The translations under genes and the position numbers were made by a program. Of a stretch of DNA of 32,000 bases, positions 4,055-13,642 are shown piece after piece. The notes below the pieces were generated by a model. The model did not search any database. It was not told the origin of the DNA and saw nothing but the letters and a program-made list of their open reading frames with translations. The stretch lies in assembly GCA_038823825.1 (NCBI GenBank), contig JAWBCC010000001.1, positions 300,001 through 332,000 on the forward strand. Reading direction: 5' to 3'. Numbering within the stretch: position 1 is the stretch's first letter; each line of letters opens with the position of its first letter. Source of the stretch: Candidatus Hadarchaeales archaeon (lineage in GTDB: Archaea; Hadarchaeota; Hadarchaeia; Hadarchaeales; Hadarchaeaceae).

Positions 4055-4975
4055 ATGGGTCTCACTCCGACTAAGTACATTTGGATGGATGGAAAATTCG
4101 TTAAATGGAAAGATGCCAAGGTACATGTTCTCACTCACACTCTCCACTATGGTTTAGGGGTTTTCGAAGGAATAAGATGTTATAACACTCCTAAAGGTCC
4201 GGCGATTTTTAGACTTCGGGACCACATGAAAAGATTCCTGAAATCGGCAAAAACTGTTGAGATGAAAATTCCGTATAATCTAAATGAGCTCTGTGAAGCT
4301 GTTAGAGAAACCGTGAAGATGAACAAAATCAAGGAGTGTTACATCAGACCGATAGCTTTCTACGGATACGGAGTTATGGGTTTGAATCCAAGCGGTGCTC
4401 CGGTAAACGTGGCTGTTGCCGTCTGGCCATGGGGAACGTATCTTGGCGAGGAAGGTCTACAAAAAGGCGTGCGCGTCAAGATATCCAAATGGCGCAGGAT
4501 TTCTCCAATGATTCTCCCACCTCAGGCGAAAATAGTTGCAAATTATGCGAATTCGATACTGGCAAAGTTAGACGCGTTGAAGTCAGGATTTGATGAAGCA
4601 ATTCTTCTCAACATAGACGGATACATTGCCGAAGGGCCTGGAGAAAATGTTTTCATAGTGAAAGATGGGCGACTGTTCACACCACCTCTCGATGTAGGAG
4701 CTCTAGAAGGAATAACAAGGGATTCTGTGATAAAAATAGCGAGAGACGAGGGATTAGAAGTGATGGAGAAAAATCTCAGAATAGAGGACCTGTACTCTGC
4801 TGATGAAGCTTTCTTTACCGGAACTGCTGCGGAAGTTACACCAATTGCGGAGGTTGATGGTAGGAAGATAGGTTCCGGAACGAGGGGTCCGATAACAGAA
4901 AGGCTTCAGGATATTTATTTCAGGACAGTCCGGGGTCTGGTAAAACGCTACTTGAAATGGCTTGATTTTGTTTAG
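4055..4975 (+). CDS. ilvE: Branched-chain amino acid aminotransferase
   Basis: Motifs YIWMDGKFVKWKDAKVHVLTHTLHYGLGVFEGIRCY, EGPGENVF, LEGITRDS and FFTGTAAEVTPI match class IV aminotransferase. The ORF-track start at 4031 is TTG; the ATG at 4055 gives the canonical N-terminus. Confidence 0.92.
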   Translation: MGLTPTKYIWMDGKFVKWKDAKVHVLTHTLHYGLGVFEGIRCYNTPKGPAIFRLRDHMKRFLKSAKTVEMKIPYNLNELCEAVRETVKMNKIKECYIRPIAFYGYGVMGLNPSGAPVNVAVAVWPWGTYLGEEGLQKGVRVKISKWRRISPMILPPQAKIVANYANSILAKLDALKSGFDEAILLNIDGYIAEGPGENVFIVKDGRLFTPPLDVGALEGITRDSVIKIARDEGLEVMEKNLRIEDLYSADEAFFTGTAAEVTPIAEVDGRKIGSGTRGPITERLQDIYFRTVRGLVKRYLKWLDFV

Positions 4976-12148: not shown

Positions 12149-12170
12149 CGTTTACAGATGTGTGTTTTTG

Positions 12171-12734
12171 ATGGTCCGTCTCTTCATAGCGGTCAACTTG
12201 CCAGAAGATCTGCGCGAGAAGCTCGCTTCTATTCAGAAGGAGTTTCCAAAAGTCTCTCTGAAATTTGTTGAACCAGAGAATCTTCATCTAACGCTAAAAT
12301 TCTTAGGCGAAACCCCTACAGGAAAGATCGAAGACATAAAAAAAGCAATTTCTATCGCTGTTCAGCACAGTTATTCATTTGAACTGGAAGTCGCAGGTCT
12401 AGGCGCCTTCCCAGATTTGCGGAGGAGTAGAGTGATTTGGGCAGGAGTAAGAAAAGGAAACCAAGATGTCATCAATCTTCAACGGAGCATAGATAGGACA
12501 CTTGCTGAGCATGGTTTCCCGCTAGAGAAAGACTTTCATCCCCATGTAACTTTAGCTCGCGTAAAGTCAGCAGTAGATGCTCGTCAAATAGTTGAATTTA
12601 TACGCGAAGTCGGCTCTCGAGTGTTCGGTTCTTTCTGTGTGAAAGAAGTAGACCTCATGCAGAGTACGCTAACCCCTCGAGGACCCATCTATACGAAGAT
12701 TTTCTCGGCTCAACTTTTAGACCGAAAAGAATAA
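12171..12734 (+). CDS. thpR: RNA 2',3'-cyclic phosphodiesterase (2H phosphoesterase, ThpR/LigT)
   Basis: It has two HxTx motifs (HLTLKFLG and HVTLARV), begins MVRLFIAVNLP, and is about 187 aa. The ORF-track start at 12162 is GTG; the ATG at 12171 is preferred. Confidence 0.9.
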   Translation: MVRLFIAVNLPEDLREKLASIQKEFPKVSLKFVEPENLHLTLKFLGETPTGKIEDIKKAISIAVQHSYSFELEVAGLGAFPDLRRSRVIWAGVRKGNQDVINLQRSIDRTLAEHGFPLEKDFHPHVTLARVKSAVDARQIVEFIREVGSRVFGSFCVKEVDLMQSTLTPRGPIYTKIFSAQLLDRKE

Positions 12735-12756
12735 ACCCTCCAAGGCAGAGTAGGTA

Positions 12757-12825
12757 GTGCCCCGATGATGTTACGACATCGGCTGAGTGTCCGATGATTA
12801 GAATGACGGGCGAGCTGAGGGGCAC
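12757..12825 (+). ncRNA. C/D box sRNA (dual guide)
   Basis: The 69-nt element has a perfect 7-bp terminal stem, GTGCCCC (12757-12763) with GGGGCAC (12819-12825). Box positions:
- C box AUGAUGU, 12765-12771
- D' box CUGA, 12783-12786
- C' box AUGAUUA, 12794-12800
- D box CUGA, 12815-12818
The guide spacers are 11 and 14 nt, and there are 7 nt between D' and C'. An AAGAATAAA TATA-like element lies about 26 nt upstream. Confidence 0.8.
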
Positions 12826-12883
12826 CAATTGTTTGCGTAATCATTCCTAAAAAGGATGAGATTATCACTATTTTGTGAAGGAT

Positions 12884-13642
12884 ATGCTAGCAAAGCGCAT
12901 AATACCATGCTTAGATGTAAATAAAGGAAGGGTTGTCAAAGGCATTAAATTTCAAAATCTAAGAGAAGCTGGCGATCCTGCAGAGTTGGCAAAGTTTTAT
13001 GAAGAGCAAGGTGCAGACGAAATAGTTTTTCTAGATATAGGAGCCTCGCCAGAAGGAAGAGAAGCGATGTTCGATGTTGTAAGACGTACCGCAGAAACTT
13101 TGTTTGTTCCTTTAACAGTTGGTGGTGGGATGAGATCCATAAACGACATAGAGCGAATGCTGAAGAGCGGGGCCGATAAAGTAGCTATAAATACGGCCGC
13201 GGTCGAGAATCCCCAGCTCGTGAAGCTAGCATCAGAGAAATTCGGCAGCCAGTGTATTGTCATCGCGATTGATGCGAAGTCGGTGGGGAAGGATAAATGG
13301 GAGGTTTATACATACGGAGGAAGAAAGCCTACAGGTCTCGACGCGATTGAATGGGCAAGAAAGGTTGAAAAACTTGGAGCCGGAGAAATCCTCCTAACGA
13401 GTATGGATGCAGACGGCACTCAACAGGGATATGATATTCCCCTTACGAAAGCCGTGTGTGAAGCCGTGAATATTCCGGTTATTGCATCTGGTGGAGCTGG
13501 AACTCTCGAGCACATTTATGAAGTTTTTGTCAAGACTTCCGCGGATGCGGCTCTCGCAGCCAGCATTTTTCATTTTGGTAAGTATACAGTCGGAGATGTA
13601 AAACGCTATTTGATGGAAAGAGGAATACCAGTGAGGAGCTGA
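12884..13642 (+). CDS. hisF: Imidazole glycerol phosphate synthase, cyclase subunit
   Basis: Motifs [53 protein letters not shown] and ALAASIFHF match HisF. The ATG at 12884 is preferred over the GTG at 12875. Confidence 0.95.

Follow-up and report, generated by a model that had tools for sequence, protein, structure and literature searches.

About half of 489 archaeal box C/D small RNAs (sRNAs) are double guides with both targets at most 100 nt apart (Dennis et al. 2015, PMC4644070). In the same work the 9-bp rule was loosened for the second guide, a chaperone role in local folding was proposed besides methylation, and helices 90-93 were identified as a methylation hotspot (PMC4644070). Here we describe an sRNA of this class, located between a thpR-like gene and hisF in a 32,000-nt stretch of DNA from a Candidatus Hadarchaeales archaeon (hereafter the window, G000:C1:300001-332000), whose host genome is a 1.05-Mb assembly of 9 contigs that is 95.8% complete. 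Our preferred reading, which we hold with a probability of about three in four, is that the element is an independently transcribed C/D sRNA present throughout the phylum, with a D guide that would act on 23S C2558 and a D' guide that ancestrally would have acted on 23S U2504.

The sRNA resembles the archaeal double guides (PMC4644070; review PMC7994747) in its four boxes, its terminal stem and its length in the range of about 60-70 nt; its spacers are near the usual 12 nt or so but not at it. It is also like them in the distance between its two proposed sites in domain V of 23S rRNA, where less than 100 nt is usual and U2504 and C2558 are 54 nt apart (positions 2620 and 2674 of the organism's own large subunit (LSU) rRNA), the D target being the more 3' of the two. 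This layout fails here if 16S rRNA is taken as the D target. Unlike the described double guides, the sRNA comes from an uncultivated phylum, has a box C that ends in U and has spacers of 11 and 13-14 nt.

Two sRNAs of other archaea share one guide each with it. For this comparison the alignment positions in the supplement of Dennis et al. were converted to E. coli numbering with offsets of 274 (23S) and 13 (16S), derived from equivalences in the paper. The D guide of Methanopyrus kandleri sR64 (AUAGUGGGCGAG; PMC4644070) has GGGCGAG in common with ours, in the same register relative to box D, and its predicted target is alignment position C2832 of 23S, which is E. coli C2558. It differs in being from another phylum, with CGGA as box D and a D' guide directed at alignment C2807. 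Correspondingly, the D' guide of Ignicoccus hospitalis sR204 (CGCCGACAUCGG; PMC4644070) shares the 9-nt core CGACAUCGG with ours, likewise in register, with alignment U2778 (E. coli U2504) of 23S as the predicted target; this crenarchaeal sRNA differs in its D guide, directed at alignment G2744, and in a degenerate D' box, AGGA.

A third group of known systems concerns 16S C1402, to which the D guide is also complementary. The equivalent nucleotide carries 2'-O-methylcytidine (Cm) that is made by RsmI in bacteria and is guided by small nucleolar RNAs in eukaryotes (18S Cm1639, Cm1703 and Cm1645; PMC11542601). SNORD43/U43, yeast snR70, Arabidopsis AtU43 and RsmI (PMC11542601) can be compared with our sRNA by target: the C1402 equivalent stands here at the N+5 position (opposite the fifth nucleotide of the guide, counted upstream from box D or D') of a 9-10 bp duplex, but 16S is probably not the selected target and RsmI is a stand-alone protein. 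Among archaea, Pyrobaculum calidifontis sR25 and a second crenarchaeal sRNA, sR35 (PMC4644070), have guides to the same 16S segment (alignment C1389*, equal to C1402). They have a mismatch at the target nucleotide and a second 16S target nearby, C1349, whereas our sRNA makes a perfect 16S duplex and has a partner guide directed at 23S. Judged from these published guides, all three sites (C2558, U2504 and C1402) have already been predicted for sRNAs of other archaeal phyla. In the literature we searched, no paper or catalogue on sRNAs of Hadarchaeota was found.

Conservation and covariation of the sRNA

An exact-pattern scan for the same architecture over 185,579 species genomes returned 26 loci in Hadarchaeota and a single bacterial match, which we ascribe to chance. 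A covariance model (CM R1) built from a 27-sequence alignment (A1) then gave a match in 60 of the 66 genomes of the phylum, including 25 of the 26 high-quality ones, and the sequences fall into families f1, f2, f4 and f5. The boxes and the guide cores are invariant in the alignment, while the loop between boxes D' and C' and the flanks are free to vary. Box C reads AUGAUGU without exception in f1, f2 and f4, and f5 has the canonical AUGAUGA.

The terminal stem has changed on both sides at 6 of its 7 pairs. At pair 5-67, AU is found in 10 sequences, CG in 9 and GC in 8, and none is unpaired. Over the whole stem 81.5% of the cells are paired, compared with 56.7% in shuffled alignments; the observed covariation was reached by 0 of 500 shuffles, and controls in which the stem was slid collapsed. 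The element also appears to bring its own promoter, as A or T makes up 77-100% at positions -38 to -31, counted from box C, in 35 distinct loci with unrelated neighbouring genes. This conserved A/T box, some 26 nt upstream of the stem, sits where an archaeal TATA box would, and we regard it as a putative promoter element. Synteny with thpR and hisF is limited to the genus, and elsewhere the sRNA is found in unrelated gene contexts; its neighbours therefore say nothing about its function.

The proteins that such an RNA would require are encoded in the host genome. The fibrillarin gene (287 bits, G000:C1:78450-79112) lies beside the Nop5 gene (245 bits, C1:79202-79879), and an L7Ae-family gene (108 bits) is found at C2:200989-201261. 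Taken together, the comparative sequence data indicate that the element is a true box C/D sRNA of the archaeal class, not catalogued before and near-universal in Hadarchaeota.

The sRNA is occasionally duplicated. In G009 it forms a tandem duplicate (L189; G009:C96:4417-4488 and 4611-4682) and the two copies differ in the D' guide, UAAUUAAUAUCGU vs. CACAACAUCGU. In G006 (L190, G006:C44:36279-36347) a degenerate second copy lies about 55 nt downstream of the intact sRNA. Two sRNA-bearing contigs (L087 of G006, and L071) are titled 'Candidatus Hodarchaeaceae' and 'Methanobacteriota archaeon'; the genome search places G006 in f1, a family of the phylum to which the window belongs, and the two odd labels are probably naming differences rather than sRNAs from outside the phylum.

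Selection on the D guide and its putative 23S target

The guides were compared with the organism's own rRNAs (small subunit (SSU), C6:29022-30514; LSU, C6:25772-28809; both on the minus strand). The 23S numbering was obtained by alignment to an E. coli 23S gene; the E. coli 16S reference copy was one nt short, and the 16S numbering was anchored on the landmarks G1405 and A1408. Guide positions are counted upstream from the box. The D-guide segment UGACGGGCG is complementary at every position to SSU 1363-1371, CGCCCGTCA (CGCCCGUCA), which corresponds to E. coli 1400-1408. The nine Watson-Crick pairs place G12810 (N+5) opposite C1402, and a preliminary description of the window, which had proposed this duplex from E. 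coli rRNA, is thereby borne out on the organism's own sequence. It had overlooked a second site, LSU 2670-2680 (UUCGCCCGUUA, E. coli U2554-A2564), which is the 3' strand of helix 92 right after the A loop. Here the guide forms 11 bp, two of them G-U, with N+5 on C2558. Complementarity of at least 9 bp with a Watson-Crick pair at N+5 is thus found at both C2558 and C1402. The 16S segment 1399-1409 (CCGCCCGUCAA) is a near-copy of 23S 2555-2565 (UCGCCC[A/G]U[C/U]AA), and it is because of this resemblance over 1399-1408 that the D guide is also able to form a 9-bp duplex with 16S.

When rRNA sites are ranked for the D guide, the A-loop site and 16S C1402 take the first two places in 7 of 9 examined genomes with a 16S gene, or in 8 of 9 if a tie is counted, a third rRNA site sharing the top rank in G045. 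An extra site for the D guide (ACCGCCCAUCC) lies in a variable region of 23S in G002, G029, G039 and G045, about 320 nt upstream of the peptidyl-transferase centre (PTC) site, and is absent from this genome.

To see which site is under selection we used the D guides of 48 distinct homologues. No change is seen at positions 3-7, 9 and 11. Purines alone occur at position 2 (34 G, 14 A) and at position 10 (46 G, 2 A), and pyrimidines alone at position 8 (46 U, 2 C). Any of the four bases may stand at position 1, and from position 12 onward the guide is variable. The constrained block therefore comprises exactly positions 2-11, and its 10 nt agree with the limit for archaeal C/D ribonucleoproteins (RNPs), in which guide and substrate pair over at most 10 nt according to Yang, Lin & Ye (2016) as cited in PMC7229835.

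The two sites behave differently against this block. Positions 2-11 pair without a gap with 2555-2564 of the genome's own 23S in all 23 distinct sRNAs for which an assembled 23S is available. On the 16S side, where 1398-1408 is invariant in the 11 relatives checked, the block is fully paired in just 32 of the 48 guides: A at position 2 (14 of 48, in at least five genera) is a mismatch to C1399, and A at position 10 (2 of 48) is a mismatch to C1407. Where 23S itself varies, the guide follows. C at position 8 occurs in G000 (this genome) and G003 only, both with G2561 in 23S, and U at this position faces A2561 in 17 sequences and G2561 in 4. Position 2563 is C in f2 and f5, giving a Watson-Crick pair with the guide G, and U in f1 and f4, giving a wobble; in G033, U2563 is met by the guide A at position 10 in a Watson-Crick pair. 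In f5 the D guide (UUGAUGGGCGAC in G034) makes 11 Watson-Crick pairs with its own 23S (10-11 among the f5 guides), and against 16S it has one mismatch and one wobble. These patterns show compensatory changes between the guide and 23S at 2561 and 2563, and they point to C2558 as the selected target, with 16S C1402 as a look-alike that the RNP may also hit.

The pairing found in this genome alone would not have sufficed for such a conclusion. Shuffled or random 12-mers score 9 or more somewhere in the 4.5 kb of rRNA in 15-17% of cases and 10 or more in 3.4%, two rRNA sites of at least 9 are found for 1.1%, and for 8.9% of shuffled D' guides a site with 9 of 10 positions paired lies no more than 100 nt from the D target. 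The view that two 9-nt matches are unlikely to arise by chance was therefore only partly upheld: chance is excluded only moderately, and the single-genome odds (15-17% and 8.9%) are modest. Because of this the case rests on conservation across the phylum and on co-variation.

The D' guide and 23S U2504

For the D' guide a 9-bp duplex with one G-U pair, centred on U2504, had been proposed from the E. coli sequence. In the organism's own 23S the segment LSU 2614-2628 (CCUCGCUGUCGUCUC, from C2498 on) has C at 2503 and U at 2509. Along U2500-C-G-C2503-U-G-U-C-G-U2509 the guide forms a G-U2500 wobble, G-C2501 and C-G2502, meets C2503 with a U in a mismatch, and resumes pairing from A-U2504 (N+5) to A-U2509, so that 9 of 10 positions are paired. 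The duplex energy is -9.9 kcal/mol on this 23S, compared with -14.6 on a template with A2503. The continuous duplex is thus broken in this genome, while the assignment to U2504 is backed by relatives, namely family f4, and has a published precedent in I. hospitalis sR204. C2503 is probably real, since it is found in the independent assembly G003 as well.

In the congener G002, which has A2503 and U2509, the D' guide makes 10 bp. The PTC site is the best-ranked rRNA match of the guide in G002, G051 and G057, and in these three as well as in f4 the duplex has at least 9 bp. In f4 the D' spacer is 12 nt long (CACCGACAUCGU) and forms 9-10 Watson-Crick pairs with 2501-2510, including G2509, at -17.2 kcal/mol. 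On these comparisons U2504 would be the ancestral D' target, and f4 provides the clearest evidence for it. A candidate D' target at LSU 1014 of this genome (7 Watson-Crick bp, -11.7 kcal/mol) was rejected, as the site was not among the matches listed in 9 relatives.

A separate observation concerns position 2509, which is U in place of the usual G in genus g1, G010, G023, G024, G051 and G057 and then pairs with the invariant A10 of the shortened f1 D' guide. The change sits on the rRNA side and not on the guide side, and it may be a coincidence.

Points against the preferred reading and alternative explanations

Several of our observations weigh against the reading given above. Thermodynamics alone shows no preference for 23S, and the 16S duplex is equal or better here: the energies are -18.4 (23S) vs. 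-19.2 (16S) kcal/mol for the D guide of this genome and -16.4 vs. -20.3 kcal/mol for the majority guide (for the f5 guide, -19.1 vs. -17.6 kcal/mol). The G at positions 2 and 10 of the majority guide makes Watson-Crick pairs with 16S and mere wobbles with 23S in f1 and f4. As for the D' guide, its mismatch in this genome, at position 4, adjoins the target U2504. The f1 spacer is short by one C (CACGACAUCGU) and varies at positions 8-11, which leaves 6-8 bp to 23S in many genomes. In f2 the spacer has been replaced (CACGGUAAGC), and a search for an rRNA site of the new guide gave none that was consistent; in f5 box D' is missing and the D' guide has decayed. In view of these changes in f1, f2 and f5 the D' guide is evolutionarily labile, the D guide being nearly fixed. 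Moreover, the spacers are 11 and 14 nt instead of 12, the final base of box C is U, and the Rfam covariance-model search proposed in the preliminary description brought no curated family to its gathering score. Finally, related genomes are non-independent samples, and for this reason we give counts rather than probabilities.

The lability of the D' guide raises the question of whether the f1 spacer is a guide at all. It could instead be that ACAUCGN is kept for pairing with box C (AUGAUGU) or box C' (CGAUG), forming a hairpin that affects folding or RNP assembly, and that methylation is left to the D guide alone. Such a hairpin, AUGAUGU and ACAUCGU around a 4-nt loop, has 7 bp in the majority sequence and 5 bp here, where it is part of the minimum free energy structure. 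Almost all of the f1 variation would fall in its loop (8-11), positions 1-7 being nearly invariant, and the unusual terminal U of box C lengthens it. Both the 6-8 bp to 23S that remain in many f1 genomes and the mismatch with C2503 in this one would fit a spacer of this kind. However, at -3.9 kcal/mol (37 °C; z = -2.0) the hairpin has little stability, and any guide against CGAUGU inevitably resembles the complement of box C. Family f4 has a full 9-10 bp guide in its 12-nt spacer, f2 retains the U of box C without a hairpin partner, and the invariant A10 pairs with U2509 in the genomes listed above. A shorter second duplex is, furthermore, thought to be tolerable in double guides (PMC4644070). 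We therefore consider the hairpin unlikely, although of all the competing explanations it holds up best.

Less probable still, and in our view improbable, is that the selected D target is 16S C1402, as the preliminary description had it, with an sRNA that bridges the centres of both subunits (16S C1402 and 23S U2504) and an A-loop match that is coincidental. The nine contiguous Watson-Crick pairs with N+5 on C1402 in the organism's own 16S, the invariance of 1398-1408 and a duplex at least as stable as that with 23S are all as this explanation would have it, and so are the Watson-Crick pairs of the majority G at positions 2 and 10 with C1399 and C1407. Cm occurs at the equivalent nucleotide in Bacteria and Eukarya (PMC11542601), and Dennis et al. 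list sRNAs of two crenarchaea with complementarity to C1402 of E. coli numbering (alignment C1389). These published predictions carry a mismatch at the target site (the asterisk of the source), though, and it is hard to square 16S as the sole target with a U at position 8 that stays opposite the invariant G1405, as a wobble, in 46 of 48 guides, when C appears only together with G2561 of 23S. The mismatches to C1399 and C1407 tell in the same direction, as do the retention of pairing over positions 2-11 (32/48 for 16S vs. 23/23 for 23S) and the f5 guides, which are perfectly Watson-Crick to 23S and not to 16S. A partner site for the D' guide near 16S C1402 was looked for and none was found. With positions 2561 and 2563 tracked by the guide, breaks in the 16S pairing tolerated and the D' target 54 nt from C2558, the comparative data favour 23S over an sRNA aimed at the centres of both subunits.

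That there is no functional RNA, and that the locus is a chance cluster of short motifs or a conserved DNA or protein-coding feature, might be argued from the missing Rfam match at gathering score, the merely moderate guide statistics of the single genome and small spurious minus-strand open reading frames (ORFs) across the region, but is effectively refuted by the compensatory changes in the stem and by the occurrence of the element, amid unrelated genes, in 60 of the 66 Hadarchaeota genomes searched, together with boxes and guide cores that are invariant beside a freely varying loop and flanks, an A/T box of its own and RNP protein genes in the genome.

Proposed function

We return to the preferred reading, in which the D guide is directed at 23S C2558 and the D' guide ancestrally at U2504. 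From the sequence features, the conservation, the covariation and the protein genes we infer that the sRNA is transcribed, assembled into an RNP and used for methylation. If the sRNA works as other box C/D sRNAs are known to do, its boxes C/D and C'/D' would form a kink-turn and a kink-loop that bind L7Ae, followed by Nop5 and fibrillarin, and fibrillarin would 2'-O-methylate the rRNA nucleotide at N+5. The D guide, with positions 2-11 selected for pairing with 23S 2555-2564, would place a methyl group on C2558, and the D' guide would aim at 2501-2510 in the peptidyl-transferase ring, with U2504 as its target. Since the D' target is 54 nt upstream of the D target, the sRNA would be a conventional double guide that clamps two close segments of domain V during assembly of the 50S subunit. 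Methylation of C2558 is the most likely function, and both methylations would most likely be coupled to folding of the PTC and the A loop. In this genome the methylation of U2504 is doubtful, because A2503C weakens the D' duplex.

The 16S nucleotide C1402 may be an additional target. A D guide tuned by wobble pairs could serve both subunits, acting on 23S C2558 by the A loop and on 16S C1402 in the P-site/decoding centre, and would then be an archaeal counterpart of RsmI and U43. U8, G2 and G10 of the majority guide are the sole bases able to pair, by Watson-Crick or wobble geometry, with both 23S 2555-2564 and 16S 1399-1408 where the two sites differ. We offer this cross-subunit action tentatively, at somewhat less than even odds, and the data can be explained without it. 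If 16S C1402 is methylated too, one guide covers functional centres of both subunits, and Cm1402 is found in all three domains by way of three different routes.

Our results add a well-supported, phylum-wide C/D sRNA family to Hadarchaeota, an uncultivated group whose genomes are small and seem to encode very few methylation guides, and suggest that even a minimal guide set keeps those for nucleotides of the peptidyl-transferase ring and the A-loop helix. They also illustrate how co-variation between guide and 23S can separate the selected target from a look-alike, where a prediction from a single genome would give both, or the wrong one.

Layout and neighbourhood of the sRNA

The features of the sRNA are given in Table 1. 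The full RNA reads GUGCCCC-G-AUGAUGU-UACGACAUCGG-CUGA-GUGUCCG-AUGAUUA-GAAUGACGGGCGAG-CUGA-GGGGCAC, with the 7-nt loop GUGUCCG between boxes D' and C'. On re-reading the sequence, the 7-bp stem, the four boxes and both spacers were all recovered where the preliminary description had placed them. The spacers of the relatives measure 10-12 nt (D') and 13-14 nt (D), the norm being about 12 nt. The thpR-hisF setting was likewise confirmed: a gene for a LigT/ThpR-type phosphoesterase (12162-12734) precedes the sRNA, and hisF (12875-13642) and then a glutamine amidotransferase gene follow it. Two short minus-strand ORFs that overlap the sRNA region are mechanical ORF calls only.

Table 1. Features of the sRNA in the window, and Rfam families matched below threshold.
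Feature	Position	Strand	Remarks
Box C/D sRNA, 69 nt with terminal stem	12757-12825	+	From sequence; CM R1 score 79.6 bits
Terminal stem, 5' strand, GUGCCCC	12757-12763	+	7 bp with 12819-12825
Box C, AUGAUGU	12765-12771	+	Consensus RUGAUGA; final A replaced by U, 6/7 positions agree
D' guide, UACGACAUCGG, 11-nt spacer	12772-12782	+	N+5 is A12778, opposite 23S U2504 (own LSU 2620)
Box D', CUGA	12783-12786	+	Kept in 42/48 distinct homologues
Box C', AUGAUUA	12794-12800	+	Conservation confined to the AUGA core, which is invariant (alignment A1)
D guide, GAAUGACGGGCGAG, 14-nt spacer	12801-12814	+	N+5 is G12810, opposite 23S C2558 (own LSU 2674) and 16S C1402 (own SSU 1365)
Box D, CUGA	12815-12818	+	Invariant in the 27-sequence alignment
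Terminal stem, 3' strand, GGGGCAC	12819-12825	+	Partner of 12757-12763
Putative B recognition element (BRE)/TATA element, AAAAG-AATAAACC	12725-12737	+	Centred about 24-27 nt 5' of the sRNA stem; overlaps the thpR stop codon
Rfam sub-threshold match, snoR77Y			21.4 bits (threshold 52)
Rfam sub-threshold match, sR20			18.8 bits (threshold 44)
Rfam sub-threshold match, sR2			17.5 bits
Rfam sub-threshold match, snoPyro_CD			15.9 bits (threshold 45)

Database searches and other C/D sRNAs

When Rfam was searched in E-value mode, 11 of 12 weak matches were to C/D families, all of them far under threshold (Table 1). The D-guide pattern TGATG..TGAYGGGCGRNCTGA was also sought beyond the phylum, and the matches listed (at least 120 loci, chance matches in bacteria) included 0 full C/D architectures. 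Among 50 ARAGORN entries neither guide had a tRNA match of 8 bp or more.

A strict C/D pattern scan of the host genome returned the sRNA at 12757-12825 alone, and a looser one gave mainly noise and one more good candidate. A search of the genome with RF00095 missed the element described here and found another sRNA. This second C/D sRNA, at G000:C2:220898-220954 on the minus strand (36 bits vs. RF00095), has the organization AUGAGGA-ACUUGGCUUGU-CUGA-UCCAG-AUGAUGA-AGAUCUUGAGUU-CUGA with a GCGC stem. Its D guide forms 12 bp with tRNA-Leu(CAA), N+5 being the first anticodon base C34, and its D' guide can pair over 9-10 bp with type II tRNAs (Leu and Ser) in the region of the D arm. With one other sRNA obtained from these crude scans, the genome, and the phylum, seem to keep very few C/D sRNAs.

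Variation in the 23S target region

The equivalent of A2503, in the wall of the PTC and exit tunnel, is C in the organism's own 23S (G000:C6:26191, LSU 2619) and likewise in G003, G028 and G034. C2503 was present in at least about 30 23S genes among the matches listed, and most of those that were identified belong to DPANN archaea (Woese-, Pace-, Nano- and Micrarchaeota). At A2503 of E. coli at least one substitution is tolerated with 75% or more of the wild-type activity in vitro (PMC7049736). Lying beside the D' target, A2503C provides a natural experiment on the mismatch tolerance of C/D RNPs.

In many Hadarchaeota the 23S gene is interrupted after U2500/C2501, right within the D' target site, by an insertion that measures about 220-880 nt. 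It was found in G050, G004, G020, G025, G029, G039, G043, G044, G051, G054 and G061, and this genome is without it. The 234-nt insertion in the LSU gene of G050 (L101:1270-1503) matches the Rfam group I intron model RF00028 from end to end, with 37.2 bits (gathering score 50) and E = 2.7e-8.

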